Positions 3,526 through 31,132 of a DNA stretch of 32,620 nucleotides are shown here, piece by piece. The notes beneath the pieces were generated by a model. The model saw nothing but the letters and a program-made list of their open reading frames with translations. It had not been told where the DNA came from and made no database searches. Within the stretch, counting starts at the first letter, position 1, and the number at the start of each line of letters is the position of its first letter. This DNA comes from a virus. Taxonomy: Duplodnaviria; Heunggongvirae; Uroviricota; Caudoviricetes. The stretch lies in the IMG/VR virus record IMGVR_UViG_2861048470_000001; one strand, 5' to 3'. The position numbers and the translations under genes were made by a program.

Positions 3526-5782
3526 AGCCTCCGGGCGTTTTGTCCCTCCGTCAGCATTTGCCGCAGGCACCGGTAAGGCGCTTACCGGTGCTTATGCATG
3601 GAACGCGCCACGCGAGGCTGTCGGGCGCGAAAGACCCCTTACACGTGACGAGATGCGTCAGGTGCAAGGTGTTTTATCCACGATTAACCGCCTGCCTTAC
3701 TTTTTGCGCTCGCTGTTTACTTCACGCTATGACTACATCCGGCGCAATAAAAGCCCGGTGCACGGGTTTTATTTTCTCACATCCACTTTTCAGCGTCGTT
3801 TATGGCCGCGCATTGAGCGTGTGAATCAGCGCCATGAAATGAACACCGACGCGTCGTTGCTGTTTCTGGCAGAGCGTGACCATTATGCGCGTCTGCCGGG
3901 GATGAATGACAAGGAGCTGAAAAAGTTTGCCGCCCGTATCTCATCGCAGCTTTTCATGATGTATGAGGAACTCTGCGATGCCTGGGTGGATGCGCATGGC
4001 GAAAAAGAATCGCTGTTTACGGATGAGGCGCAGGCTCACCTCTATGGTCATGTTGCTGGCGCTGCACGTGCTTTCAATATTTCCCCTCTCTACTGGAAAA
4101 AATACCGTAAAGGGCAGATGACCACGAGGCAGGCATATTCTGCCATTGCCCGTCTGTTTAACGATGAGTGGTGGACTCATCAGCTTAAAGGCCAGCGTAT
4201 GCGCTGGCATGAAGCGTTACTGATAGCTGTCGGGGAGGTCAATAAAGACCGTTCTCCTTATGCCAGTAAACACGCCATTCGTGATGTGCGTGCGCGCCGC
4301 CAGGCAAATCTGGAATTTCTTAAATCGTGTGACCTTGAAAACAGGGAAACCGGCGAGCGCATCGACCTTATCAGTAAGGTGATGGGCAGTATTTCTAATC
4401 CTGAAATTCGCCGGATGGAGCTGATGAACACCATTGCCGGTATTGAGCGTTACGCCGCCGCAGAGGGTGATGTGGGGATGTTTATCACGCTGACTGCGCC
4501 GTCAAAGTATCACCCGACTCGTCAGGTCAGAAAAGGCGAAAGTAAAACCGTTCAGCTTAATCACGGCTGGAACGATGAGGCATTTAATCCAAAGGATGCG
4601 CAGCGTTATCTCTGCCGCATCTGGAGCCTGATGCGCACGGCATTCAAGGATAATGATTTACAGGTCTACGGTTTGCGTGTCGTCGAGCCACACCACGACG
4701 GAACGCCGCACTGGCATATGATGCTTTTTTGTAATTCGCGCCAGCGTAACCAGATTATCGAAATCATGCGTCGCTATGCGCTCAAAGAGGATGGCGACGA
4801 AAGAGGAGCAGCGCGAAACCGTTTTCAGGCAAAACACCTTAATCGGGGCGGTGCTGCGGGGTATATCGCGAAATACATCTCAAAAAACATCGACGGCTAT
4901 GCACTGGATGGTCAGCTCGATAACGATACCGGCAGACCTCTGAAAGATACTGCCGCGGCTGTTACTGCATGGGCGTCAACGTGGCGCATCCCGCAATTTA
5001 AAACGGTTGGTCTGCCGACAATGGGGGCTTACCGTGAACTACGCAAATTGCCTCGCGGCGTCAGCATTGCTGATGAGTTTGACGAACGCGTCGAGGCTGC
5101 ACGCGCTGCCGCAGACAGTGGCGATTTTGCGTTGTATATCAGTGCGCAGGGTGGGGCAAATGTTCCGCGCGATTGCCAGACTGTCAGAGTCGCCCGTAGC
5201 CCGTCGGATGAAGTTAACGAGTACGAGGAAGAAGTCGAGAGAGTGGTCGGCATTTACGCGCCGCATCTCGGCGCGCGTCATATTCATATCACCAGAACGA
5301 CGGACTGGCGCATTGTGCCGAAAGTTCCGGTCGTTGAGCCTTTGACTTTAAAAAGCGGCATCGCCGCGCCTCGGAGTCCTGTCAATAACTGTGGAAAGCT
5401 CAACGGTGGTGATACTTCGTTACCGGCTCCCACACCTTCTGAGCACGCCGCAGCAGTGCTTAATCTGGTTGATGACGGTGTTATCGAATGGAATGACCCG
5501 GAGGTTGTGAGGGCGCTCAGAAGCGCATTAAAACACGGCCTGAGAAGACCAAACCGTCAGCAAAGAAACGGAAGCCCGTTAAAACCACATGAAATTGCAC
5601 CATCGGCCAGACTGACCCGGTCGGAAAGAATGCAAATCACCCGTATCCGCGTTGACCTTGCTCAGAACGGTATCAGGCCGCAGCGATGGGAGCTTGAGGC
5701 GCTGGCGCGTGGGGCAACAGTAAATTATGACGGGAAAAAATTCACGTATCCGGTCGCTGATGAGTGGCCGGGATTCATATAA
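3515..5782 (+). CDS. A: Replication initiation endonuclease A (rolling-circle HUH Rep)
   Basis: Large ORF with an HUH-type motif (TPHWHMMLF) and downstream tyrosine-rich region (AAGYIAKYISKN). The ATG at 3515 (MAVKAS...) gives about 755 aa, close to P2 gpA; the ORF-track start at 3473 would overlap the previous gene more deeply. Confidence 0.9.
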   Translation: MAVKASGRFVPPSAFAAGTGKALTGAYAWNAPREAVGRERPLTRDEMRQVQGVLSTINRLPYFLRSLFTSRYDYIRRNKSPVHGFYFLTSTFQRRLWPRIERVNQRHEMNTDASLLFLAERDHYARLPGMNDKELKKFAARISSQLFMMYEELCDAWVDAHGEKESLFTDEAQAHLYGHVAGAARAFNISPLYWKKYRKGQMTTRQAYSAIARLFNDEWWTHQLKGQRMRWHEALLIAVGEVNKDRSPYASKHAIRDVRARRQANLEFLKSCDLENRETGERIDLISKVMGSISNPEIRRMELMNTIAGIERYAAAEGDVGMFITLTAPSKYHPTRQVRKGESKTVQLNHGWNDEAFNPKDAQRYLCRIWSLMRTAFKDNDLQVYGLRVVEPHHDGTPHWHMMLFCNSRQRNQIIEIMRRYALKEDGDERGAARNRFQAKHLNRGGAAGYIAKYISKNIDGYALDGQLDNDTGRPLKDTAAAVTAWASTWRIPQFKTVGLPTMGAYRELRKLPRGVSIADEFDERVEAARAAADSGDFALYISAQGGANVPRDCQTVRVARSPSDEVNEYEEEVERVVGIYAPHLGARHIHITRTTDWRIVPKVPVVEPLTLKSGIAAPRSPVNNCGKLNGGDTSLPAPTPSEHAAAVLNLVDDGVIEWNDPEVVRALRSALKHGLRRPNRQQRNGSPLKPHEIAPSARLTRSERMQITRIRVDLAQNGIRPQRWELEALARGATVNYDGKKFTYPVADEWPGFI

Positions 5783-5900
5783 ACTGAAATGAACAGCGTT
5801 GCAAGTGTGATAAAAATCATTATACTGTTTTTATATACAGTACTTTAATCTGGAAAGATGCTATAAATGTATATTTCTATAAAAATATATGGTTTATTGA

Positions 5901-5929
5901 TTGTGTATGCTCACTATCAAATTTATACT
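5901..5929 (+). promoter_or_regulatory. Candidate sigma70 promoter for the accessory module (TTGTGT-17 bp-TATACT)
   Basis: Read by eye in the AT-rich spacer upstream of the 6060 gene. Weak -35, good -10. Not validated. Confidence 0.3.
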
Positions 5930-15266: not shown

Positions 15267-15697
15267 TGATTGTGCTGGTTGTGTTGTTATCACTGGCGGT
15301 GGCTGGTCTGTTTCTGGTGAAACACAAAAATGCCAGCCTGCGCGCCTCGCTGGACAGGGCGAACAACGTCGCCAGCGGGCAGCAGACGACCATCACCATG
15401 CTGAAAAATCAGCTTCATGTTGCCATCACCAGAGCAGACAAAAACGAGCTGGCGCAGGTGGTACTGCGTCAGGAACTGGAGAACGCCGCGAAGCGTGAAG
15501 CACAGCGCGAGAAAACCATCACGAGGTTACTTAATGAAAACGAAGATTTTCGCCGCTGGTACGGCGCTGACCTGCCTGATGCTGTGCGCCGGTTGCACCA
15601 GCGCCCCGCCTGCACCGACGCCAGTGATTGTCCACAACGCCTGCCCGAAAGTGAGTCTTTGCCCGATGCCGGGCAGCGACCCGGAGACGAACGGTGA
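15254..15697 (+). CDS. lysB: LysB (Rz-like inner-membrane spanin)
   Basis: N-terminal transmembrane anchor (LMIVLVVLLSLAVAGLFLV) followed by a coiled-coil region. Confidence 0.8.
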   Translation: MSRLMIVLVVLLSLAVAGLFLVKHKNASLRASLDRANNVASGQQTTITMLKNQLHVAITRADKNELAQVVLRQELENAAKREAQREKTITRLLNENEDFRRWYGADLPDAVRRLHQRPACTDASDCPQRLPESESLPDAGQRPGDER

Positions 15698-16770: not shown

Positions 16771-17556
16771 TTATGAGTGATTTTTATTTGATGCTTTGTA
16801 TTCTAAAACCTTCTTATTGGCGTAAAAGAATTTTGTATATGACAGGAATATAACCAGACCTGAAGTGAAATAGACGAGGGATAGTATTAATAATGCTTTT
16901 TTGTGACTGTTATTATCTTTAATCTCCTGGCTTAACCATTCGGAGTCCTCCTCGTTTAGCTGTAAGAGCTTATTGCAGGCGATTTCAGGAAGTGTGTCTT
17001 TTATAAATACGTTTTGCAGTCTCTTGCAATCGGCAAGGCTATAAGTTTTATTAAATTCAACTGCTTTATTTTTGAAGGATAAAAGAACTTTGTCACTATA
17101 AACATAGTACATCATATTTTTATATGGTATGCCTATGGCATCTCTTACTATAGCGGATTGTTTGTTGTGTATATAACATGCGAAGAGAATATAAATAATA
17201 CTGGCCAGAATTACAATTGTTGTTTTAATTATGTGTGGTGGTTTTGTTATGTCACCCCAGATGCGAGTAAGGAAAAAATACGATGTTTTTAGTTTTCCAT
17301 CAATCAGTCCCTGCTGTATCATTCTCACATTTTCAATGCCTGATACATTGATTCCGTTAATTATTTTAAATAGTTGAATGTCGCGCCACTCGCGGTCAAG
17401 TCTTTTTAATTTTTTGTCTGAATATCCAAAATTGAAATAATGTGCAATAAGCCTCATAAGGTTACTTTTACCAAAGCTAAAAAATGCTAATACTGCAAAG
17501 CTACAAAGGAAAAAAACGATTAGCCCCCACACATTAGTCACATTATAGCTGACCAT
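16771..17556 (-). CDS. Accessory membrane protein with three predicted transmembrane helices, unknown function (P2 orf30 position)
   Basis: 261-aa ORF on the strand opposite to the flanking tail genes; strongly AT-rich; hydrophobic segments near residues 9-28, 120-140 and 225-245; no motif I recognise. Confidence 0.65.
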   Translation of the reverse strand: MVSYNVTNVWGLIVFFLCSFAVLAFFSFGKSNLMRLIAHYFNFGYSDKKLKRLDREWRDIQLFKIINGINVSGIENVRMIQQGLIDGKLKTSYFFLTRIWGDITKPPHIIKTTIVILASIIYILFACYIHNKQSAIVRDAIGIPYKNMMYYVYSDKVLLSFKNKAVEFNKTYSLADCKRLQNVFIKDTLPEIACNKLLQLNEEDSEWLSQEIKDNNSHKKALLILSLVYFTSGLVIFLSYTKFFYANKKVLEYKASNKNHS

Positions 17557-19532: not shown

Positions 19533-20055
19533 TTCGCGCCTGCTGCCGACCGGCTCATCACCGCTTGAAGTCGCTGCCGCGAAAGCCTGTGCGGAAATTG
19601 AAAAAACGCCGGTCAGTATTCGTGAGCTGTGGAACCCGGACACCTGCCCGCCAAATCTGCTGCCGTGGCTGGCGTGGGCGTTTTCGGTCGACAGGTGGGA
19701 TGAAAAGTGGCCGGAAGCGACAAAACGCGCCGTTATCCGCGATGCCTATTTCATCCACTGTCATAAGGGCACGATAGGTGCAATCCGACGTGTGGTGGAG
19801 CCGCTCGGCTATCTCATCAACGTGACGGAGTGGTGGGAAAACAGTGACCCGCCCGGCACCTTCCGGCTCGATATTGGTGTACTGGAAAGCGGTATCACAG
19901 AGGCAATGTATCAGGAAATGGAACGGCTGATTGCTGATGCCAAACCTGCAAGCCGTCACCTTATTGGTCTGAACATTACCCGGGACATTCCCGGCTATCT
20001 GTTCGCCGGTGGTGTGGCTTACGACGGCGATGTAATTACGGTTTACCCCGGATAA
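19525..20055 (+). CDS. I: Tail/baseplate protein I
   Basis: 176 aa; P2 gpI position. Confidence 0.85.
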   Translation: MSDSRLLPTGSSPLEVAAAKACAEIEKTPVSIRELWNPDTCPPNLLPWLAWAFSVDRWDEKWPEATKRAVIRDAYFIHCHKGTIGAIRRVVEPLGYLINVTEWWENSDPPGTFRLDIGVLESGITEAMYQEMERLIADAKPASRHLIGLNITRDIPGYLFAGGVAYDGDVITVYPG

Positions 20056-20065
20056 GTGAGGAATA

Positions 20066-22315
20066 ATGAGCACAAAATTCAAAACCGTTATCACTACTGC
20101 CGGTGCAGCAAAGCTGGCAGCGGCAACCGCGCCGGGAGGGCGGAAGGTCAACATTACCACGATGGCCGTCGGGGATGGCGGTGGTAAATTGCCTGTCCCG
20201 GATGCCGGACAGACCGGGCTTATCCACGAAGTCTGGCGACATGCGCTGAACAAAATCAGTCAGGACAAACGAAACAGTAATTATATTATCGCAGAGCTGG
20301 TTATTCCGCCGGAGGTGGGCGGTTTCTGGATGCGTGAGCTTGGCCTGTACGATGATGCTGGAACGTTAATTGCCGTGGCGAACATGGCCGAAAGTTATAA
20401 GCCAGCCCTTGCCGAAGGCTCAGGGCGTTCGCAGACCTGCCGCATGGTCATCATCGTCAGCAGTGTGGCCTCAGTGGAGCTGACCATTGACACCACAACG
20501 GTGATGGCAACGCAGGATTACGTTGATGACAAAATTGCAGAACATGAACAGTCACGACGTCACCCTGACGCCTCGCTGACCGCAAAAGGTTTTACTCAGT
20601 TAAGCAGTGCGACCAACAGCACGTCTGAAACACTGGCTGCAACGCCAAAGGCGGTTAAGGCCGCATATGACCTTGCTAACGGGAAATATACCGCACAGGA
20701 CGCTACCACCGCGCGAAAAGGCCTTGTTCAGCTCAGTAGTGCGACTAACAGCACGTCTGAAACGCTCGCCGCAACGCCGAAAGCGGTAAAGGCAGCATAT
20801 GACCTTGCTAACGGGAAATACACTGCACAGGATGCCACAACAGCGCGAAAAGGCCTTGTTCAGCTCAGTAGCGCCACCAACAGCGATTCTGAAACGCTTG
20901 CGGCAACGCCAAAGGCGGTTAAGACAGCATATGACCTTGCTAACGGGAAATACACTGCACAGGATGCCACCACGGCGCGAAAAGGTCTTGTCCAGCTCAG
21001 TAGCGCCACCAACAGTGATTCTGAAACGCAGGCTGCAACGCCAAAGGCGGTGAAGTCTGCCTATGACAATGCTGAAAAACGTCTTCAGAAAGATCAGAAC
21101 GGTGCGGATATCCCTGATAAAGAACGCTTCCTGAGTAACATTAATGTTTACAGCAAAGGTGAAGTGGATAAGAAAAAGGGAATGCGAAAGTATTCGTTTG
21201 CAGCCCCTGCAAATGTCGTTGCCGGGAAGTGGTACCCCGTTATCTTTCGCCGTGCTGCCAGCCTTTCAGGAGAAATGGCATCCCGCGTTGTTATTTCCAC
21301 TGGTTGTTATAACGGCGATTATGTAATGAATAACTGCGAGTTTAATGGCATGGTTATGCCCGGAGGCTGGACTGATCGTGGTTCATATGCGGCAGGTTAT
21401 TTCTGGACGTATCAGACTAATGAGCGTTCAATCCATTCCATTGTTACAAGCCTGAAAGATGATGATGTATGTAGTGTTTTTTATGTTGAAGCCAGAGCTT
21501 TCCCTGTACAAATTCTTGCAGAGGAAGGGCTAACGGTTATTGTTCCGACAGAGGATTATGTCGTCGGTCAAACGACATATAAGTGGGGGGCAACTAATCC
21601 CGCTACAGAAAGCACGAACGCACAGGCTATTCTGGATTTTAAAAATGGACGTGGTTATTACTGTTCACATCCATTTATTTCCAGCCTTTCAGGAAATGCT
21701 GCAACAGCAACGAAGTTAGCGAACGCAAGAAATATTAATGGTGTCAGATTTGATGGCTCTGCCGATATAAATATTAATACACTGGTATCCAGAAACCGTG
21801 TTAATGCATTAGGTGGGAGCGTAAAGGGGACACCAGGTATTCAGATGTATGAGGCATACAACAATGGCTACCCAACAGCCTATGGTAATGTGCTTCATCT
21901 CACTGGCGTAACCGCAGTAGGAGAGGGTGAGTTACTTATTGGCTGGAGTGGAACCAGCGGTGCTCATGCTCCGGCATATATTCGTTCCCGACGAGATACC
22001 ACAGATGCTAACTGGTCTGGATGGGCGCAACTATATACAACTGCTCATAAACCCTCAGCGGGAGATGTTGGTGCATACACCAAAACTGAGTCAGATTCAC
22101 GTTATGTGAGAGACATGCGGCTGGGCGGTGCATCTACATATAAACCAGCAAATAATGGTACTACATGGACGCATCAGGCTCCGTCAGGTTGCGTATATAC
22201 CGGCATTATTGTTCAGGATACCGGCTCAAACTCTGCCGATAACATTGGTGGCGTATATTACAGACCGGTGCAGAAATACATTAACGGGACATGGTATAAC
22301 GTGGCGCAGGTATAA
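20066..22315 (+). CDS. H: Tail fibre protein H
   Basis: 749 aa; conserved N-terminus; internal tandem phage-fibre repeats; divergent, AT-richer C-terminal region. Confidence 0.9.
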   Translation: MSTKFKTVITTAGAAKLAAATAPGGRKVNITTMAVGDGGGKLPVPDAGQTGLIHEVWRHALNKISQDKRNSNYIIAELVIPPEVGGFWMRELGLYDDAGTLIAVANMAESYKPALAEGSGRSQTCRMVIIVSSVASVELTIDTTTVMATQDYVDDKIAEHEQSRRHPDASLTAKGFTQLSSATNSTSETLAATPKAVKAAYDLANGKYTAQDATTARKGLVQLSSATNSTSETLAATPKAVKAAYDLANGKYTAQDATTARKGLVQLSSATNSDSETLAATPKAVKTAYDLANGKYTAQDATTARKGLVQLSSATNSDSETQAATPKAVKSAYDNAEKRLQKDQNGADIPDKERFLSNINVYSKGEVDKKKGMRKYSFAAPANVVAGKWYPVIFRRAASLSGEMASRVVISTGCYNGDYVMNNCEFNGMVMPGGWTDRGSYAAGYFWTYQTNERSIHSIVTSLKDDDVCSVFYVEARAFPVQILAEEGLTVIVPTEDYVVGQTTYKWGATNPATESTNAQAILDFKNGRGYYCSHPFISSLSGNAATATKLANARNINGVRFDGSADININTLVSRNRVNALGGSVKGTPGIQMYEAYNNGYPTAYGNVLHLTGVTAVGEGELLIGWSGTSGAHAPAYIRSRRDTTDANWSGWAQLYTTAHKPSAGDVGAYTKTESDSRYVRDMRLGGASTYKPANNGTTWTHQAPSGCVYTGIIVQDTGSNSADNIGGVYYRPVQKYINGTWYNVAQV
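20585..21076 (+). repeat. Four tandem copies of a 132-bp (44-aa) repeat inside H
   Basis: Units start at 20585, 20717, 20849 and 20981, each encoding KG(L/F)(V/T)QLSSATNS(T/D)SETLAATPKAVKAAYDLANGKYTAQDATTAR; the fourth is truncated and divergent. Copies differ at synonymous sites. Confidence 0.85.
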
Positions 22316-22318
22316 TTT

Positions 22319-22846
22319 ATGCAGCATTTAAAAAATATTACGGCGGGTAATCCAAAAACGGTTGAACAATATCAATTGACAAAGGACTTTGATGTTGTCT
22401 GGTTTTTTTCAGAAGATGGTAAGAACTGGTACGAAGAACAAAAGTATTTTGCTGATGACACGATAAAAATAGCGTACGACAAAGATAATATCATCCACTA
22501 TGTGGAAAAGGATGTGACAGCTATCAGACCGGATGGATTAAGTGTTGTTGAAGTGGCGGATATTACTGCTAACCGACGGGCGGACATTTCAGGGAACTGG
22601 ATGTTTAAGGACGGCAAAGTGATTAAACGCATTTATACGGCAGAGGAATTACAGCAGCAGGCAGAAATTCGGAAAGCCAGACTTCTTGCAGATGCTGAAT
22701 CCGTGATTTTGCCGCTGGAGCGCGCGGTCAGACTGAACATGGCAACAGATGAGGAGCGTAGCCGACTGGAATCATGGGAACGCTACAGCGTTCTGATCAG
22801 TCGTGTGGATCCTGCAAATCCTGAATGGCCGGAAATGCCGCAATAA
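22319..22846 (+). CDS. G: Tail fibre assembly chaperone G
   Basis: 175 aa (MQHLKNI...[11 protein letters not shown]); conserved Tfa C-terminus. Confidence 0.85.
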
Positions 22847-22907
22847 GTTGTATGAACTCTTGTGTGAGCTTACATACCTATAGAACAGAGTAAAGCCTAA
22901 TCTGACA

Positions 22908-22931
22908 GTCCGCTCTGTGCCAGGAGCGGAC
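22908..22931. repeat. Hairpin at the left edge of the Z/fun-locus cargo
   Basis: GTCCGCTC (22908-22915) / GAGCGGAC (22924-22931) with an 8-nt loop and no T-run; overlaps the motifs AATCTGACAGTC and AGTCCGCTCT that recur on the far side of the cargo gene. Confidence 0.5.
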
Positions 22932-23185
22932 ATAACGACACGTTAGTTAGAAATCTCAAGACCAATTAGGTTGGATACTTACATGTATACTATTGCCTAA
23001 CGATACTACCCTATCAACCTCATGGTTTATAGGCGGGGGTGAGAGCCAATCGAACGCTATCGTACGTTTTTATGCTGTCTACCCTAGACCCCAAGTAGAC
23101 ATGAATCTTACCTGATTTCCATACGAGGGCGACGTTGATCATCCAGCTTTAGTGCGAGCACTGAACTTAACATTTACCAGCAATA

Positions 23186-24232
23186 GTGATATTTTCTACA
23201 AAGAAAAATATATGGAATAACGTCATCGCGGGTACAAAAATGACTATAAAAAAAACATATGTAACACCAACAGAAATAGTGAAATATTTTTATGACAAAC
23301 CGGAAAACGATAACGTAAAAGAGAGAAAAACAATTGAGAGCCTGACCCGTCTCAAACCTGAGTGGGAAAATACTCTCGATATGATGAAGTTAATACGCAA
23401 TTGTGAAAAGCTAGCAACTGAAGGTATTTTAATGGAATTATCTTCAGGACATACTCTTTTGGACCGTTGCTATTTCGCACCGAATTTCAATGAATCAGAT
23501 GCGAAATATGGAAAGTATGATTTTATAGCTGATGGATTTGAGTCAATCATAGACCGCCTTAGTCCTTCCGTTTTACCTGTTGTTGTTGAAAAAAGTGATG
23601 GTTCACATGATCTTGGTACTAGTTTTATTGTTGGGAATAACCACACGATATTTACAGCCAGACATGTTATTGAAGACATGAAGAGTATCAGGATACTTAG
23701 AGCTGGTGGTGAGGCTTTACCAATACATAAAATCTTTGTATCTAACGATGAACGTATTGATATCGCTTTAGTTTTCACAACCATTCCGAATGAAGATAAT
23801 ATTCAACCACTTAAGGTCTCAACCAAAGCCTCGGTACTGGATGAAATTTTATCAATAGGATTTCCACCCATTCCAGGATTTGATGCATTAAAGTTATATG
23901 ACGTTTCGCATATAAATTCGTTTGTCCGACTGTCAAAGGGGCGAATTGTTGGTTCTGGTCACTCTTACTTAGATTCACAAGACTTTTTATTATTCAATGC
24001 TAGGGTTAAGGGGGGGAATAGCGGTGGCCCTATAATTAACAAATACGGCTTTGTTGTTGGTATGCTTGTACAAATACCAATATCATCTGAGGACAGTTCA
24101 AAGATTGATAACCTTGGATATGGTATAGCTGTAACAGGAAAAAGCCTGCTGGATGCCATTACATTTACAGAAAATGGCCGCGAATTAACACTCACCGACC
24201 GAGGAAATGGAGAATATTCAACTCTAGCATAA
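23186..24232 (+). CDS. Trypsin-fold (S1-like) serine protease with an N-terminal domain of unknown function; accessory gene at the Z/fun locus
   Basis: ORF with a His-Asp-Ser triad in chymotrypsin order and spacing: TARHV (His), DIALV (Asp), GGNSGGP (Ser). AT-rich. Start is either GTG at 23186 or ATG at 23240. Confidence 0.7.
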   Translation: MIFSTKKNIWNNVIAGTKMTIKKTYVTPTEIVKYFYDKPENDNVKERKTIESLTRLKPEWENTLDMMKLIRNCEKLATEGILMELSSGHTLLDRCYFAPNFNESDAKYGKYDFIADGFESIIDRLSPSVLPVVVEKSDGSHDLGTSFIVGNNHTIFTARHVIEDMKSIRILRAGGEALPIHKIFVSNDERIDIALVFTTIPNEDNIQPLKVSTKASVLDEILSIGFPPIPGFDALKLYDVSHINSFVRLSKGRIVGSGHSYLDSQDFLLFNARVKGGNSGGPIINKYGFVVGMLVQIPISSEDSSKIDNLGYGIAVTGKSLLDAITFTENGRELTLTDRGNGEYSTLA

Positions 24233-24829
24233 ATGATATTATTAATTAAGTTGTACTAACTCAGTTTAAATGAATCAAGCATCCCCGTAACTTTGCCTGA
24301 AAAGGCTCATCGAGGGATGCACATTGTACGGATGTGTGAAAACTAAATCGGCTTTGTCACTTGGATTCGAGGGGAAAACTGAACTGAAAGCGATAAAAAC
24401 GTCTAAAAAATCGTTTCGCAGACAGATGCACCCGATTCAAGCCATTTTGAGGAAGGCTTTCTGCCTTTTATATTTATATTAATCATAAGCTTATTCCATT
24501 GGTGTACGATATCGTGCTTTGCCCCTCATCTCCCAGATAACTAATTAGCCTTAAAATTACTCATGTGTTTCTGCCGGTTAAAATTATATGGTTTTCATTT
24601 ACAATAGTCTCAAGTCCGCTCTTCGCTCAAAGCAGACTGTCAGATTTGATAGCATTTGGGCTATGTAAATTGTCAGGCGGAAAATGAGTGAGTACAAATC
24701 AGGACAGGCGGGCGAATTGCCCGCATTTTCTTTATCTGTTGTTTCATCCCCTGACCAGCCAGGTCAAATAGCGTCTCATGCACTGCCCAACAGAAAATAG
24801 TTGCACCCATTAACCACGGAGTTAAACGG

Positions 24830-26020
24830 ATGAGTGACTATCATCACGGCGTGCAGGTGCTGGAGATTAACGACGGCACCCGCGTCATTTCCACTGTATC
24901 CACTGCCATTGTCGGCATGGTCTGCACGGCCAGCGATGCGGATGCGGAAACCTTCCCCCTCAATAAACCTGTGCTGATTACCAATGTGCAGAGCGCAATT
25001 GCAAAGGCCGGTAAAAAAGGCACGCTGGCGGCATCGTTGCAGGCCATCGCTGACCAGTCAAAACCGGTCACCGTTGTCGTGCGCGTGGAAGACGGCACCG
25101 GCGACGACGAAGAAACGAAACTTGCGCAGACCGTTTCCAATATCATCGGCACCACCGACGAAAACGGTCAGTACACCGGACTGAAAGCCCTGCTGGCGGC
25201 GGAGTCAGTAACCGGTGTTAAACCGCGTATTCTCGGCGTGCCGGGACTGGACACCAAAGAGGTGGCTGTTGCACTGGCATCAGTCTGTCAGAAGCTGCGC
25301 GCTTTCGGGTATATCAGCGCATGGGGCTGTAAAACCATTTCCGAGGTGAAAGCCTACCGCCAGAATTTCAGCCAGCGTGAGCTGATGGTCATCTGGCCGG
25401 ATTTCCTCGCATGGGATACGGTCAGCAGCACCACCGCCACCGCGTATGCCACCGCCCGTGCGCTGGGGCTGCGTGCTAAAATCGACCAGGAGCAGGGCTG
25501 GCATAAAACGTTGTCCAACGTCGGGGTAAATGGTGTTACCGGCATCAGCGCATCTGTATTCTGGGATTTGCAGGAGTTCGGCACCGATGCTGACCTGCTT
25601 AACGAGTCAGGCGTCACTACGCTGATTCGCCGCGACGGTTTCCGCTTCTGGGGTAACCGTACCTGCTCTGATGACCCGCTGTTCCTCTTTGAAAACTATA
25701 CCCGCACCGCGCAGGTGCTGGCCGACACGATGGCTGAGGCGCACATGTGGGCGGTGGACAAGCCCATCACCGCAACGCTGATTCGCGACATCGTTGACGG
25801 CATCAATGCCAAATTTCGTGAGCTGAAAACAAACGGCTATATCGTGGATGCGACCTGCTGGTTCAGCGAAGAATCCAACGATGCGGAAACCCTCAAGGCC
25901 GGAAAACTGTATATCGACTATGACTATACCCCGGTGCCTCCTCTTGAAAACCTGACCCTGCGCCAGCGTATTACCGATAAATACCTGGCAAATCTGGTCA
26001 CTTCGGTTAACAGCAATTAA
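24830..26020 (+). CDS. FI: Contractile tail sheath protein FI
   Basis: 396 aa; P2 gpFI size and position. Confidence 0.9.
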   Translation: MSDYHHGVQVLEINDGTRVISTVSTAIVGMVCTASDADAETFPLNKPVLITNVQSAIAKAGKKGTLAASLQAIADQSKPVTVVVRVEDGTGDDEETKLAQTVSNIIGTTDENGQYTGLKALLAAESVTGVKPRILGVPGLDTKEVAVALASVCQKLRAFGYISAWGCKTISEVKAYRQNFSQRELMVIWPDFLAWDTVSSTTATAYATARALGLRAKIDQEQGWHKTLSNVGVNGVTGISASVFWDLQEFGTDADLLNESGVTTLIRRDGFRFWGNRTCSDDPLFLFENYTRTAQVLADTMAEAHMWAVDKPITATLIRDIVDGINAKFRELKTNGYIVDATCWFSEESNDAETLKAGKLYIDYDYTPVPPLENLTLRQRITDKYLANLVTSVNSN

Positions 26021-26032
26021 GGAGCCTGACCG

Positions 26033-26551
26033 ATGGCAATGCCGCGCAAACTCAAGTTAATGAACGTCTTTCTGAACGGCTACAGCTATCAGGGCGTTGC
26101 AAAGTCCGTCACGCTGCCAAAACTGACCCGTAAGCTCGAAAACTATCGCGGTGCGGGGATGAACGGCAGCGCACCGGTAGACCTCGGCCTTGATGACGAT
26201 GCGCTGTCAATGGAGTGGTCGCTCGGTGGCTTCCCGGATTCGGTTATCTGGGAGCTTTACGCCGCAACCGGCGTGGATGCCGTCCCGATTCGTTTTGCAG
26301 GCTCTTACCAGCGTGACGATACCGGCGAAACGGTGGCCGTCGAGGTGGTCATGCGTGGACGTCAGAAAGAAATCGACACCGGCGAGGGTAAACAGGGAGA
26401 AGACACCGAGTCGAAAATCTCCGTGGTCTGCACCTATTTCCGGCTGACGATGGACGGTAAGGAGCTGGTCGAAATCGACACCATCAACATGATTGAGAAG
26501 GTGAACGGCGTCGACCGGCTGGAGCAACACCGCCGCAATATCGGCCTGTGA
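26033..26551 (+). CDS. FII: Tail tube protein FII
   Basis: 172 aa; P2 gpFII size and position. Confidence 0.9.
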   Translation: MAMPRKLKLMNVFLNGYSYQGVAKSVTLPKLTRKLENYRGAGMNGSAPVDLGLDDDALSMEWSLGGFPDSVIWELYAATGVDAVPIRFAGSYQRDDTGETVAVEVVMRGRQKEIDTGEGKQGEDTESKISVVCTYFRLTMDGKELVEIDTINMIEKVNGVDRLEQHRRNIGL

Positions 26552-26607
26552 TTTTCATCCGGTCAGCCTGGCTGACCGGTTAACCCCGATTCATAAGTGA
26601 GAAAACC

Positions 26608-26883
26608 ATGAACAAAGAAAATGTGATTACCCTGGACAATCCGGTCAAACGTGGTGAGCAGGTTATCGAACAGGTCACGCTGATGAAACCCAGTGCCGGG
26701 ACGCTGCGCGGTGTCAGTCTGGCAGCGGTCGCAAACTCCGAAGTCGATGCACTGATTAAGGTGTTGCCGCGCATGACGGCACCGATGCTGACCGAGCAGG
26801 AGGTCGCCGCGCTGGAACTGCCTGACCTTGTGGCGCTGGCCGGTAAGGTGGTCGGTTTTTTGTCGCCGAACTCGGTGCAGTGA
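26608..26883 (+). CDS. E: Tail assembly chaperone E
   Basis: 91-aa ORF ending ...VVGFLSPNSVQ; contains the slippery heptamer near its 3' end. Confidence 0.85.
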   Translation: MNKENVITLDNPVKRGEQVIEQVTLMKPSAGTLRGVSLAAVANSEVDALIKVLPRMTAPMLTEQEVAALELPDLVALAGKVVGFLSPNSVQ

Positions 26884-27035
26884 CGTTCCCGAAAAATCTA
26901 TCGGTCGATGACCTGATGGCGGATGTGGCAGTGATATTTCACTGGCCGCCATCAGAACTGTATCCCATGAGTCTGACCGAACTCATCACATGGCGCGAAA
27001 AGGCGCTCCGGCGAAGCGGAAACACGAATGAGTAA
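26608..27035 (+). CDS. E': E+E' fusion produced by programmed -1 ribosomal frameshift
   Basis: Slippery heptamer T-TTT-TTG at 26856-26862. The -1 frame is open from 26859 to the TAA at 27033-27035 and encodes ...FVAELGAVTFPKNLSVDDLMADVAVIFHWPPSELYPMSLTELITWREKALRRSGNTNE (translated by hand), overlapping the T start. Confidence 0.7.
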
Positions 27036-29475
27036 CAATGTAAAATTACAGGTATTGCTCAGGGCTGTTGACCAGGCATCCCGCCCGTTTAAATCCATCC
27101 GCACAGCGAGCAAGTCGCTGTCGGGGGATATCCGGGAAACACAAAAATCACTGCGCGAGCTGAACGGTCACGCATCCCGTATTGAGGGATTTCGCAAGAC
27201 CAGCGCACAGCTCGCCGTGACTGGTCATGCACTTGAAAAGGCACGGCAGGAGGCCGAAGCACTTGCCACACAGTTTAAAAACACTGAACGTCCGACCCGT
27301 GCTCAGGCGAAAGTGCTGGAATCCGCAAAGCGTGCGGCGGAGGACTTACAGGCGAAATATAACCGCCTGACGGATTCCGTTAAACGCCAGCAGCGGGAAC
27401 TGGCCGCTGTGGGAATTAATACCCGCAATCTTGCACATGATGAGCAGGGGCTGAAAAACCGTATCAGTGAAACCACCGCACAGCTTAACCGGCAGCGTGA
27501 CGCGCTGGCGCGTGTCAGTGCACAACAGGCAAAACTTAACGCAGTCAAACAGCGTTATCAGGCAGGAAAAGAACTTGCCGGAAATATGGCCTCAGTGGGC
27601 GCTGCCGGTGTGGGGATTGCGGCGGCGGGAACGATGGCCGGAGTTAAGCTGCTGATGCCCGGTTATGAGTTTGCGCAGAAAAACTCAGAATTGCAGGCCG
27701 TGCTCGGTGTGGCAAAAGATTCCGCCGAAATGGCCGCGCTCCGCAAACAGGCGCGCCAGCTCGGCGACAATACCGCCGCCTCAGCGGATGATGCGGCCGG
27801 TGCGCAGATTATCATTGCGAAAGCGGGTGGAGATGCTGCGGCTATTCAGGCGGCAACGCCGGTCACGCTGAATATGGCACTGGCGAATCAGCGGTCGATG
27901 GAAGAAAACGCGCAACTGTTGCTGGGGACTAAGGCATCCTTTCAACTGTCAAATGATGATGTCAGCCATGTGGGCGACGTGTTGTCGGCAACGATGAATA
28001 AGTCGGCGGCTGATTTTCAGGGACTCAGTGATGCACTGACTTACCTCGGTCCGGTTGCGAGGACGGCAGGTGTAAGTCTTGAACAGGCAGCGGCCATGAC
28101 AGGTGTGCTGCATGACAATAACATCAGGGGGTCAATGGCGGGTACGGGTGGCAGTGCCGTTGTCACCCGATTACAGGCACCGACTGGAAAAGCATGGGAT
28201 GCACTCAAAGAGCTTGGCGTTAAAACCTCGGACAAAAAGGGAAATATGCGTCCGTTGTTCACCATTCTGAAAGAGATTCAGGCCAGCTTTGATAAACACA
28301 AGCTGGGAACGTCTCAGAAGGGGGAATACCTTAAAACCATTTTTGGTGAGGAAGCCCTGAAATCAGCGAACGTTTTACTGGCAGCGGCTGCAAGCGGAAA
28401 ACTGGATAAGCTGACCGCCACACTGAAAGCCTCAGACGGTAAAACGGAAGAGCTGGTTAAAATCATGCAGGACAACCTCGGCGGTGACTTTAAGGAGTTT
28501 CAGTCCGCTTATGAAGCGGTGGGGACTGACCTGTTTGACCAGCAGGAAGGCGCACTGCGTAAGCTCACGCAGACGGCCACAAAGTATGTGTTAAAACTCG
28601 ACGGCTGGATCCAGAAAAACAAATCACTGGCGTCAACCATTGGCCTAATTGCCGGTGGCGCGCTGGCGCTTACTGGCATCATCGGTGCCATTGGTCTTGT
28701 AGCCTGGCCGGTTATCACCGGCATCAATGCCATCATCGCGGCAGCAGGCGCAATGGGGGCAATCTTCACGACGGTTGGCAGTGCTGTTATGACCGCCATC
28801 GGGGCGATTAGCTGGCCGGTTGTGGCCGTGGTGGCCGCCATTGTCGCCGGGGCGTTGCTTATCCGTAAATACTGGGAGCCTGTCAGCGCATTCTTTGGCG
28901 GTGTGATGGAAGGGCTGAAAGCGGCATTTGCGCCGGTGGGGGAACTGTTCACGCCACTTAAGCCGGTGTTTGACTGGCTGGGCGAAAAGTTACAGGCCGC
29001 GTGGCAGTGGTTTAAAAACCTGATTGCCCCGGTCAAAGCCACCCAGGACACCCTGAACCGTTGCCGTGATACTGGCGTCATGTTCGGGCAGGCACTGGCT
29101 GACGCGCTGATGCTGCCGCTTAATGCGTTCAACAAACTGCGCAGCGGAATTGACTGGGTACTGGAAAAACTCGGTGTTATCAACAAAGAGTCAGACACAC
29201 TTGACCAGACCGCCGCCAGAACTCAAGCCGCCACGTATGGCAGCGGTGGTTATATTCCGGCGACCAGCTCTTATGCAGGCTATCAGGCTTATCAGCCGGT
29301 TACGGCACCGGCTGGCCGCTCTTATGTGGACCAGAGTAAAAACGAATATCACATCAGCCTGACGGGTGGTACTGCGCCGGGGACACAGCTTGACCGCCAG
29401 TTACAGGATGCGCTCGAAAAATACGAGCGGGATAAACGTGCGCGCGCCCGTGCCAGCATGATGCATGACGGTTAA
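27028..29475 (+). CDS. T: Tail tape-measure protein T
   Basis: 815 aa; coiled-coil N-terminus and Gly/Ala-rich hydrophobic central region. Confidence 0.9.
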   Translation: MSNNVKLQVLLRAVDQASRPFKSIRTASKSLSGDIRETQKSLRELNGHASRIEGFRKTSAQLAVTGHALEKARQEAEALATQFKNTERPTRAQAKVLESAKRAAEDLQAKYNRLTDSVKRQQRELAAVGINTRNLAHDEQGLKNRISETTAQLNRQRDALARVSAQQAKLNAVKQRYQAGKELAGNMASVGAAGVGIAAAGTMAGVKLLMPGYEFAQKNSELQAVLGVAKDSAEMAALRKQARQLGDNTAASADDAAGAQIIIAKAGGDAAAIQAATPVTLNMALANQRSMEENAQLLLGTKASFQLSNDDVSHVGDVLSATMNKSAADFQGLSDALTYLGPVARTAGVSLEQAAAMTGVLHDNNIRGSMAGTGGSAVVTRLQAPTGKAWDALKELGVKTSDKKGNMRPLFTILKEIQASFDKHKLGTSQKGEYLKTIFGEEALKSANVLLAAAASGKLDKLTATLKASDGKTEELVKIMQDNLGGDFKEFQSAYEAVGTDLFDQQEGALRKLTQTATKYVLKLDGWIQKNKSLASTIGLIAGGALALTGIIGAIGLVAWPVITGINAIIAAAGAMGAIFTTVGSAVMTAIGAISWPVVAVVAAIVAGALLIRKYWEPVSAFFGGVMEGLKAAFAPVGELFTPLKPVFDWLGEKLQAAWQWFKNLIAPVKATQDTLNRCRDTGVMFGQALADALMLPLNAFNKLRSGIDWVLEKLGVINKESDTLDQTAARTQAATYGSGGYIPATSSYAGYQAYQPVTAPAGRSYVDQSKNEYHISLTGGTAPGTQLDRQLQDALEKYERDKRARARASMMHDG

Positions 29476-29489
29476 GGAGGTGACGAAAA

Positions 29490-29969
29490 ATGATGCTCGC
29501 GTTAGGTATGTTTGTTTTTATGCGCCAGACGCTGCCACACCAGACCATGCAGCGTGAATCAGATTATCGCTGGCCGTCAAATTCCCGTATCGGTAAACGG
29601 GATGCCTTTCAGTTTCTCGGTGTGGGTGAGGAAAACATCACGCTTGCCGGCGTGCTTTATCCCGAACTGACCGGCGGGAAGCTGACGATGACCACGCTCA
29701 GGCTGATGGCAGAGGAAGGCCGGGCGTGGCCGTTGCTGGATGGCACCGGCATGATTTACGGCATGTATGTCATCAGCAAGGTGAGTGAAACAGGGAGTAT
29801 TTTCTTTGCAGATGGCACACCCCGAAAAATTGATTTTACGCTGTCGCTCACCCGCGTTGATGAATCACTGGCCGCGCTTTATGGCGATATCGGTAAACAG
29901 GCGGAATCGCTCATCGGTAAGGCTGGCAGTATGGCGACTAAATTCACGGGTATGACGGGGGCGGGATAA
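29490..29969 (+). CDS. U: Tail protein U
   Basis: 159 aa; P2 gpU position. Confidence 0.85.
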   Translation: MMLALGMFVFMRQTLPHQTMQRESDYRWPSNSRIGKRDAFQFLGVGEENITLAGVLYPELTGGKLTMTTLRLMAEEGRAWPLLDGTGMIYGMYVISKVSETGSIFFADGTPRKIDFTLSLTRVDESLAALYGDIGKQAESLIGKAGSMATKFTGMTGAG

Positions 29970-31132
29970 TGCTGGATGCGCTGACATTTGATGCAGGCAG
30001 TACGCTGACGCCGGATTACATGCTGATGCTCGACAGCAGGGATATTACCGGCAATATCAGCGACCGTCTGATGAGCATGACCCTGACGGATAACCGGGGC
30101 TTTGAGGCTGACCAGCTTGATATTGAACTGAACGATGCCGACGGGCAGGTCGGGCTGCCGGTTCGTGGCGCTGTCCTGACGGTGTATATCGGCTGGAAAG
30201 GTTTTGCCCTGGTATGCAAAGGGAAATTTACCGTTGATGAGGTTGAACACCGGGGCGCACCGGATGTGGTCACCATCCGCGCCCGGAGTGCAGATTTTCG
30301 CGGGACGCTCAATTCCCGCCGTGAAGGCTCCTGGCATGACACCACGCTCGGTGCGATTGTTGAGGCGATAGCCTCCCGTAACAGGCTGGAAGCCAGTGTC
30401 GTTCCATCACTGGCCGGAATTAAAATCCCGCACATCGACCAGTCGCAGGAGTCTGATGCAAAATTCCTGACCCGCCTTGCTGAACGCAACGGCGGTGAGG
30501 TGTCGGTAAAAATGGGAAAACTGTTGTTTCTCAAAGCGGGGCAGGGGGTGACGGCCAGCGGTAAAAAAGTCCCGCAGGTCACCATAACCCGCAGCGACGG
30601 CGACCGCCATCATTTTGCGATTGCTGACCGTGGAGCCTATACCGGCGTAACGGCAAAGTGGCTTCACACCAAAGACCCGAAGCCGCAAAAGCAGAAGGTA
30701 AAACTGAAACGCAAAAAGAAAGAGAAACACCTGCGCGCACTGGAGCACCCGAAAGCGAAACCAGTCACGCAGAAGAAAGCGCCAAAAGTACCGGAAGCGC
30801 GCGAAGGTGAATACATGGCCGGTGAGGCTGACAACGTTTTTGCACTGACCACGGTATATGCCACGAAAGCACAGGCCATGCGCGCCGCTCAGGCGAAGTG
30901 GGATAAACTGCAACGGGGTGTGGCGGAGTTCTCCATCAGCCTGGCTACCGGTCGGGCAGATATTTACACGGAAACACCGGTTAAAGTGTCAGGCTTTAAG
31001 CGCGTCATAGACGAGCAGGACTGGACAATCACTAAGGTGACACATTTTCTGAATAATAGCGGCTTCACGACGTCCTTAGAGCTTGAGGTCAGGCTTTCTG
31101 ATGTGGAGTACGAAACCGAAGATGATGAGTGA
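29969..31132 (+). CDS. D: Tail protein D
   Basis: 387 aa; P2 gpD size and position. Confidence 0.9.
   Translation: MLDALTFDAGSTLTPDYMLMLDSRDITGNISDRLMSMTLTDNRGFEADQLDIELNDADGQVGLPVRGAVLTVYIGWKGFALVCKGKFTVDEVEHRGAPDVVTIRARSADFRGTLNSRREGSWHDTTLGAIVEAIASRNRLEASVVPSLAGIKIPHIDQSQESDAKFLTRLAERNGGEVSVKMGKLLFLKAGQGVTASGKKVPQVTITRSDGDRHHFAIADRGAYTGVTAKWLHTKDPKPQKQKVKLKRKKKEKHLRALEHPKAKPVTQKKAPKVPEAREGEYMAGEADNVFALTTVYATKAQAMRAAQAKWDKLQRGVAEFSISLATGRADIYTETPVKVSGFKRVIDEQDWTITKVTHFLNNSGFTTSLELEVRLSDVEYETEDDE

Follow-up and report, generated by a model that had tools for sequence, protein, structure and literature searches.

What are the short repeats that bracket the variable cargo of P2-like prophages, and how did they come to lie there? 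The stretch of DNA studied here (the window) is a P2-like prophage of 32,620 nt (32.6 kb; IMG/VR record IMGVR_UViG_2861048470_000001). Its interval between the tail-fibre assembly gene G and the tail sheath gene FI corresponds to the 'Z/fun' position of phage P2 and holds a single gene, for an S1/trypsin-like peptidase. A first-pass annotation made from the letters alone had noted paired motifs and a hairpin at the two edges of this cargo, and had read them either as recombination scars that mediate cargo exchange or as shared regulatory sites. We conclude that a non-autonomous cargo transposon very probably occupies 22849-24696, and that the two arms are positions 51–83 of its 83-nt terminal inverted repeats (TIRs). 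Positions are those of the window, and the features are collected in Table 1.

The motifs had been located correctly: a 12-nt inverted repeat (AATCTGACAGTC at 22899-22910, reverse complement at 24635-24646), a 10-nt direct repeat (AGTCCGCTCT at 22907-22916 and 24613-24622) and an 8-bp hairpin on the left (22908-22931, GTCCGCTC-N8-GAGCGGAC). They are not independent of one another. Both repeats are parts of one 33-nt imperfect inverted repeat, 22899-22931 and 24614-24646, in which 28 of 33 positions (85%) are complementary. Each arm consists of AATCTGACA and a 24-nt palindrome with 8-8-8 geometry (GTCCGCTC-TGTGCCAG-GAGCGGAC on the left), and it is the palindromic form of the arms that gives rise to the 'direct' repeat. 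In a 51-nt context the left hairpin has a folding energy of -18.5 kcal/mol on the plus strand (z = -3.0). The right palindrome is degenerate on the plus strand; its hairpin is stable on the minus strand (-16.1 kcal/mol), with 8 pairs, two of them G-U.

By shuffling, the repeat was only marginally significant within the window: 14 of 300 dinucleotide-preserving shuffles of 22847-24829 reached its best ungapped inverted-repeat score of 18 (shuffled mean 12.5, sd 1.9; p about 0.05). It is the comparative evidence that decides the matter. With a covariance model for the site, the window gave exactly two strong matches (55 and 54 bits), and a profile of the 83-nt end (nhmmer) also had exactly two, at 22849-22933 and 24696-24612 (E = 1e-19 and 1e-18). 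A weak model match at 5156-5190 was a short CTCTGACAGTCTGG coincidence within a gene. We also rejected a terminus-like TAAGT followed by TGTACTAACTC at 24247-24262 as a nested end, which matched 14 of the first 20 nt and 30/83 overall; 14/16 repeats such as this one occur at the chance rate (one observed, 0.93 in shuffles).

We collected 80 P2-like loci via the FI protein, and 46 of them have both arms. These 46 loci hold 33 different cargos of 843-4,103 bp. Similarity in the left flank stops at 22922-22936, with a mode at 22931, the last base of the left arm, and similarity in the right flank starts at 24608-24623, with a mode at 24614, the first base of the right arm. The motifs therefore mark the conserved/variable boundaries to within a few bases, a pattern also present in >1,000 E. 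coli genomes. In phage P2 itself, fun(Z) is bracketed by the same sites (NC_001895, about 15325-15358 and 17432-17464). The transition lies inside the palindrome: the outer half-palindrome and 6–7 loop bases are nearly invariant, the inner half-palindrome differs by cargo, and per-column conservation falls at the inner end of the loop. The 8-8-8 geometry is extended to 13-8-13 in two loci (L073 and L004). Cargo is never inverted between loci (0 minus-strand vs 31 plus-strand locus pairs), and cargo genes lie on both strands (19 plus, 13 minus). An inversion switch was rejected, as no cargo occurred in both orientations and the G-FI interval of the window contains no invertase. A permutation test found no linkage between the two inner half-sites of a cargo (p = 0.65), a result that does not support a circular cassette with one matched site.

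The same sites occur far from P2. A 35–37-nt core is present at 100% identity in hundreds of E. coli genomes at loci unrelated to P2, and when one genome per species was scanned for the exact pattern, the core turned up in Yersinia, Xenorhabdus, Morganella, Klebsiella, Pantoea, Erwinia, Enterobacter, Kosakonia, Lelliottia and Acinetobacter; no strong match in that scan lay near homologues of G or FI. Outside the core sites, about 50 nt more are conserved on both sides, up to a common terminus, 5'-TGTATTAGCTCAGAYTTGAYCTGACA. Thirteen such ends align without gaps over 83 nt, with a consensus that starts 5'-TGTATTAGCTCAGA, and fall into two classes, L and R, that are kept across genera. The TIRs align across Klebsiella, Pantoea, Kosakonia, Acinetobacter, Yersinia and E. 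coli, and they carry a repeated internal motif, CTGACAG, in two occurrences. Among 37 sites that lie outside the P2 scaffold, conservation is highest in the loop, whose sequence depends on the class (TGTGCCAR in L, TGAGCGAR in R).

Both edges of the window's cargo belong to this alignment. The left end (nhmmer E = 9.9e-20) aligns gaplessly with ends from Klebsiella, Pantoea, Kosakonia and Acinetobacter and is of the L class, with 68/83 identities to the L consensus vs 52/83 to the R consensus. The right end (E = 1.4e-18; 54.4 bits with the covariance model) is of the R class, with 60/83 identities to R vs 50/83 to L. The motifs first noticed, at 22899-22931 on the left and 24613-24646 on the right, lie inside these ends and correspond to TIR positions 51–83.

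Nine complete elements outside P2 could be delimited (Table 1), and seven of them are flanked by perfect 7-bp target duplications, each with a chance probability of about 6e-5. The neighbours of family elements are mutually unrelated and include carB, argR, a lipid A acyltransferase gene, P4-type integrases, lambda gene P and plasmid TraM. What the elements carry is passenger cargo: a CLC channel, a cupin, LysR and MFS proteins, hydrolases, a nucleotidyltransferase and similar genes. The family, with relatives in at least 10 genera, has asymmetric L/R ends, passenger genes only, 7-bp target duplications and many unrelated contexts across Enterobacterales and Acinetobacter. Of 5,426 E. coli genomes, 544 have full-length R ends, which are also present on 63 plasmids, and family sites occupy 1–3 places per E. 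coli genome. The suggestion that the motifs are scars mediating cargo exchange was therefore right in placing paired motifs at the edges of exchangeable cargo, inside and outside P2. They are not isolated short scars, being the innermost 33 nt of 83-nt TIRs with 7-bp target duplications.

Four P2-like loci (L016, L023, L049 and L074) have neither cargo nor arms, and in them the G stop codon is joined directly to the terminator. This empty site reads CAATAA + AT/AC + ACAGGCGGGC...TTTTCTTT, with the terminator 2 nt after the stop codon. The difference between occupied and empty sites is the element 22849-24696 plus exactly 7 nt. A subset of P2-like loci has AATAAAT as its left flank, which is the empty-site sequence, and the pair AATAAGT/AATCAGG seen in the window is found in 22 of 39 P2-like elements. 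In the window the insertion has displaced the operon terminator 1.86 kb downstream of its position in the empty-site phages.

The outer parts of the P2 ends have decayed. Identity to the end consensus is 58–65% in P2-like copies and 95–96% in mobile copies at positions 1–14, and 56–61% and 83–85%, respectively, at positions 15–50. The corresponding values are 94% and 90–95% at positions 51–75 and 74–85% and 78–89% at positions 76–83. The outer end sequence follows the phage backbone, not the cargo; ends of the CGTATTAGCT type, for example, go with one G type and three different cargos. This pattern suggests that the P2 copy is a fossil that no longer transposes and that its inner module has been maintained or continually renewed.

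We propose that one copy of the element entered the 7-bp target AATAAAT, overlapping the G stop codon, in an ancestor of many P2-like phages, and that this single insertion would have created the 'Z/fun' locus. A DDE-type transposase acting in trans would have made this insertion, to judge by the TG...CA termini, the long asymmetric ends and the fixed 7-bp stagger. The outer ends would then have drifted and co-varied with the backbone, the inner module (AATCTGACA, the outer half-palindrome and the 8-nt loop) staying at consensus. Cargo turnover would proceed by double recombination in the inner module, L with L and R with R, with one crossover per palindrome, and the partners would be family members on islands, plasmids or co-resident phages. 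Since the crossovers would fall inside the palindromes, the outer half would stay with the phage and the inner half would arrive with the cargo. Two heterospecific inverted sites would account for cargo that is replaced yet neither inverted nor deleted. Most likely the inner module is bound by a protein, either the family's transposase or a recombinase. We found no stem covariation beyond sequence conservation (85.4% paired vs 84.8% in shuffles), which fits a protein that binds double-stranded DNA better than it fits a hairpin folded in RNA or DNA.

Several observations weigh against the transposon reading. The window's own target duplication is degenerate (5/7 match), and two of the nine complete relatives also lack a perfect one (5/7 and 2/7); the latter, L122, may reflect recombination between two copies rather than primary insertion. 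The statistics inside the window alone are weak. No transposase was found in any copy, nor any autonomous relative among about 25 copies examined; no recombinase was found either, and mobility is inferred from footprints only. The candidates for an autonomous copy all failed: the cargo of the 6.3-kb Pantoea element comprises LysR, MFS and hydrolase genes, only passenger genes are present in the plasmid copies from Yersinia, Klebsiella and Salmonella, and the 'integrase core domain' gene of the DX6-type locus proved to be a truncated insertion sequence (IS) fragment. Finally, the internal junctions described below and the DX6-type locus have palindromes without the outer 50 nt, which simple transposition fails to explain.

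Palindromes that stand without the outer TIR point to a second process acting at the palindromes themselves. Longer P2 cargos contain internal junctions, made of an R palindrome, 18 nt (CTTCAGCTCAG + 7) and an L palindrome, that separate tandem cassettes and lack the outer 50 nt of the ends. An Erwinia chromosome and the aspV island of E. coli have the same R-18-L junction. One unit of 534 nt is bounded by an internal R palindrome in L041, and in L060 by the terminal R arm. The protease cassette of the window is common to 12 P2 lysogens and 28 non-P2 E. coli genomes from palindrome to palindrome (22908/22912 to 24637/24643), at 99.2–99.4% identity. The outer half-palindromes and the flanks of the non-P2 locus are not those of P2, and for a P2 to DX6-type transfer the identity at the junctions is just 7–16 nt. 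As the route of cargo exchange, we lean somewhat towards a protein-mediated event within the conserved, class-specific 8-nt spacer; plain short-homology recombination alone is the less probable of the two, though a serious contender.

The palindromes might instead be primarily the crossover sites of a dedicated site-specific recombinase, with cassettes replaced through heterospecific inverted sites and with attC-like R-18-L junctions; we regard this as possible but doubtful. It would draw together the 8-8-8 geometry and its extension to 13-8-13, a loop or 'spacer' that is best conserved and differs systematically between L and R, conserved/variable transitions at the loop's inner edge, the lack of inverted cargo, and composite junctions kept across genera without the outer TIR. 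The identity at the P2 to DX6-type junctions is moreover too short for RecA. Tyrosine-recombinase core-type sites have two inverted binding arms around a 6–8-bp spacer that must match between partners. The crossover positions are compatible with such a site, for which no recombinase is known. A secondary source says that the repeats 'enable site-specific recombination' (PMC8987985). However, neither in P2 nor in most other contexts do the sites have a linked recombinase gene, they are unlike dif, attC, lox and hix, and the inner half-sites of a cargo are unlinked. Taken alone, a recombinase leaves unexplained both the 7-bp duplications and a conserved 50-nt outer end with a TG...CA terminus. 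It is compatible with the transposon reading, in which it would supply a possible second, cargo-swapping layer.

It is unlikely, and more so than a recombinase, that the arms are functionless in P2 and that ordinary or short-homology recombination (RecA, Red/RecET-type) acts wherever family members share identity. The near-identical 25-nt block at positions 51–75 would then be the only usable homology, hence the boundaries that pile up at its inner edge. The change from invariant to variable sequence between the outer and the inner half fits this, as do the 94% consensus identity of that block in P2 and the failure to find a dedicated enzyme. Recombineering works with arms of about 35–50 nt, which also counts for it, but 25 nt is at RecA's lower limit and the identity available to the DX6-type transfer is far below that. 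Nor does homology explain why positions 51–75 are conserved in P2 amid the decay of other TIR parts, or why the R-18-L junction keeps its architecture across genera.

It is highly improbable that the hairpins serve as transcriptional signals, be they terminators, insulators or RNA-stability elements, and are shared on account of a role in regulating moron expression; the earlier suggestion of shared regulatory sites is not supported. The folding energies of the left arm on the plus strand and the right arm on the minus strand are in keeping with such a role, and so is the location after G. However, neither arm has a T-tract or was called by the terminator scan, whose sites in the interval lie elsewhere (24451-24469 and 24708-24724). 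There was no match to an Rfam family, the stems do not covary, cargo genes lie on both strands, and the same sequences are found 50 nt inside transposon termini in unrelated contexts. Chance coincidence in AT-rich intergenic DNA, for which the within-window shuffle could be cited, is refuted by the profile E values, by positions conserved in 46 loci and by the identical core in hundreds of E. coli genomes in other contexts.

A broader version of the transposon reading is tentative. The Z/fun locus and the hotspots at island integrases, lambdoid prophages and plasmids could belong to one widespread transposase-less family whose inner palindromes are heterospecific L/R sites. Together the sites would make up a natural cassette-exchange system, like an integron array that has no integrase linked to it. 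Defence genes and other accessory genes would pass through it from one phage, island or plasmid to another, with a transposase and/or recombinase as the driving enzyme.

Family sites were also seen in several other settings. In lambdoid prophages, ends of the family occur at L109 1052-1140 (Trabulsiella, adjoining a lambda P homologue) and in E. coli (H284-H286) under 'protein ren'; the position beside the replication genes P and ren may be a further phage hotspot that goes back to this element. CP4 islands do not carry the sites as a rule, as the three K-12 CP4 cryptic prophages hold just one weak site, of the L type (28.9 bits; L114 23406-23441, or NC_000913 about 2775405-2775440, in CP4-57 downstream of yfjW). 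Ends at L092 2346 (Pectobacterium), L093 250 (Raoultella) and L095 1193 (Enterobacteriaceae bacterium) match the profile at positions 1–79 only and therefore miss the inner half-palindrome. About 5 kb separates the L093 end from a distant FI/FII homologue (identity 49% and 44%). The aspV island array (L112/L113, E. coli strain 104 and Nissle 1917) spans 19953-30032, with an L site at 20003, R at 23222-23247, an abutting R-L junction at 24232-24304 and R at 29994-30032. Its last unit carries an operon for a TonB-dependent receptor and an ABC transporter, and cargo therefore extends beyond defence genes.

The peptidase encoded by the window's cargo is a 330-aa S1 protein whose N-terminal ~110 aa have no Pfam match, and its gene is flanked by non-coding DNA of about 300 nt (22932-23239) and 380 nt (24233-24613). 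Its PADLOC matches were limited to protease domains, those of RT-Protease_XI, LmuA and HamA (E 1e-13 to 1e-7), so the peptidase is not a recognised defence system. In E. coli DX6 (L002), dispersed repeats of ~100 and 85 nt (3827-3930 and 5842-5926) lie beside the protease cassette and match 1–4 places in many E. coli genomes. Upstream in the window, the H protein contains near-identical tandem repeats of ~42 aa (…LSSATNS[TD]SETLAATPKAVKAAYDLANGKYTAQDATTARKGLVQ…), visible in the translation of about 20560-21010.

Table 1. Features of the window around the G-FI interval, class-specific modules of the ends and complete elements outside P2.
Feature	Position	Strand	Length	Details
Tail fibre gene H	20066-22315			
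Tail-fibre assembly gene G	22319-22846			Pfam Caudo_TAP
Left target duplication	22842-22848		7 bp	AATAAGT; holds G stop codon TAA (22844-22846)
G-FI interval			1,983 bp	Single gene (S1/trypsin-like peptidase)
Transposon-like element	22849-24696		1,848 bp	Between G stop codon and its terminator
Left TIR, L class	22849-22931	+	83 nt	Decayed terminus TGTATGAACTC...; AATCTGACA 22899-22907; palindrome GTCCGCTC-TGTGCCAG-GAGCGGAC 22908-22931
Cargo	22932-24613	+	1,682 bp	
Promoter-like site in cargo	23167-23195			Promoter scan
S1/trypsin-like peptidase gene	23240-24232			Pfam Trypsin_2, 1.7e-17; RefSeq 'S1 family peptidase'
Terminator-like hairpin in cargo	24451-24469			Terminator scan
Right TIR, R class	24614-24696	-	83 nt	Palindrome 24614-24637 (plus-strand loop TTCGCTCA); TGTCAGATT 24638-24646; decayed terminus ...GAGTACA ends 24696
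Right target duplication	24697-24703		7 bp	AATCAGG, degenerate
Original intrinsic terminator of V-W-J-I-H-G late operon	24704-24735	+		GCGGGCGAATTGCCCGC then ATTTTCTTTA; terminator scan; outside element
Tail sheath gene FI	24830-26020			FII next
L class of ends				Positions 51-59 AACCT·AATCTGACA; outer stem GTCCGCTC; loop TGTGCCAR; inner stem RAGCGGAC
R class of ends				Positions 51-59 CAATCA·AATCTGACA; outer stem GTCTGCTT; loop TGAGCGAR; inner stem RAGCGGAC
Element L110, Klebsiella			2,199 bp	Flanks GCTAATA
Element L108, metagenome-assembled genome			1,970 bp	Flanks CACTATT
Element L094, Pantoea			6,257 bp	Flanks GCTAACT
Element L106, Acinetobacter			731 bp	Flanks CTTAATA
Element L104, Kosakonia			1,420 bp	Flanks AATAATT
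Element L117, first, Yersinia plasmid			3,388 bp	Flanks TATTAGC
Element L121, Klebsiella plasmid			835 bp	Flanks GCTAAGG
Element L117, second, Yersinia plasmid			1,201 bp	Flanks match 5/7
Element L122, Salmonella plasmid pSA20083530.1	2230-3104		875 bp	Complete; flanks match 2/7

The inverted repeats at Z/fun of P2-like coliphages were reported in 2004 (Nilsson, Karlsson & Haggard-Ljungquist, Mol Biol Evol 21:1-13) and, according to papers that cite that work, were read as site-specific recombination sites (PMC8987985, PMC3091744). The location between G and FI, the variable non-essential ORFs that are flanked and the repeat pair are the same as here. Those repeats, too, were seen in bacterial genomes; ours are in the aspV CP4-type island (including that of Nissle 1917), the DX6-type locus and other genera. 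Where the 2004 account, as cited, speaks of site-specific recombination, we see the inner third of 83-nt ends, 7-bp duplications, an empty site and fossil decay. We did not find a transposon architecture for the Z/fun repeats in the accessible literature, where the 2004 paper is represented by its citing papers, and searches with the end sequences returned only unrelated primer matches. This family is not described in the accessible literature; a transposase-less cargo transposon is a known kind of element.

Mobile insertion cassettes (MICs), such as MIC231 of Bacillus cereus, and TIMEs share with it the TIRs, target duplications, passenger genes, absence of a transposase and presumed mobilisation in trans. 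The family described here differs in its unrelated, much longer asymmetric ends (83 nt, L/R), 7-bp duplication, internal palindrome module and tandem cassette arrays, and no cognate transposase is known for it. TIMEs are Tn3-derived inverted-repeat miniature elements (PMC4133298). Tn7-, Mu- and Tn552-type transposons resemble the family in having 5'-TG...CA-3' termini, long non-identical ends and repeated internal motifs. Tn552 has ends of ~116 bp and duplications of 6–7 bp, and the duplications of Tn7 and Mu measure 5 bp. No gene resembling TnsB, MuA or p480 turned up inside the copies or close to them.

Integrons on Tn402-type transposons are also built in two layers, with transposon ends outside and exchangeable promoter-poor cassettes inside, and with ~66-nt imperfectly palindromic junctions. 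Unlike them, the family has no IntI, no attI, no R''/L''/L'/R' boxes, two different ends per cassette and mixed gene orientation. At the P2 locus itself we found no integrase, and the cargo starts RTTR-like, not GTTRRRY. Engineered cassette exchange between heterospecific lox or FRT sites and the natural pdif modules of Acinetobacter plasmids likewise use inverted non-identical sites and replace cargo as a unit with no inversion or excision seen. Here no recombinase was found and the sites are unlike lox, FRT and dif, which makes that analogy functional only. REP/BIME/REPIN elements, which number tens to hundreds of copies per genome and have a GTAG/CGTC tag and an associated RAYT, were rejected: the present sites occur at 1–3 places per E. 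coli genome, differ in sequence and carry genes and target duplications. Other resemblances did not hold. The Tn3 38-bp IR (TCTGAC...GCTCAGTG...ACGTT) needs indels, and Tn3 duplications are 5 bp; the Rci shufflon spacer GTGCCAA comes with an unrelated arm; the resolvase half-site TGTCYNNTA is not kept at the internal junctions; and likenesses to dif, lox and hix sites were judged coincidental.

Few carriers of anti-phage defence genes have been studied as well as P2-like prophages. The most recent large survey of these hotspots reports transposable elements to be almost absent and states that the recombination processes 'still need to be elucidated' (PMC13586616). Repeats, hairpins and palindromes go unmentioned in recent hotspot papers, in which the mechanism of exchange counts as unresolved (PMC9122126, PMC13586616 and a 2024 bioRxiv preprint). 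The family described here bears on the exchange question that those papers leave open, and it ties a largely forgotten observation of 2004 back to current work on defence hotspots. If the transposon reading is true, it would offer a testable route by which near-identical defence cassettes come to lie in P2 and in 'cryptic chromosomal locations', and a defined site pair for exchange experiments. The 83-nt end profile or the 39-nt site model would then serve as a signature for finding cargo boundaries, and with them accessory and defence genes, automatically.

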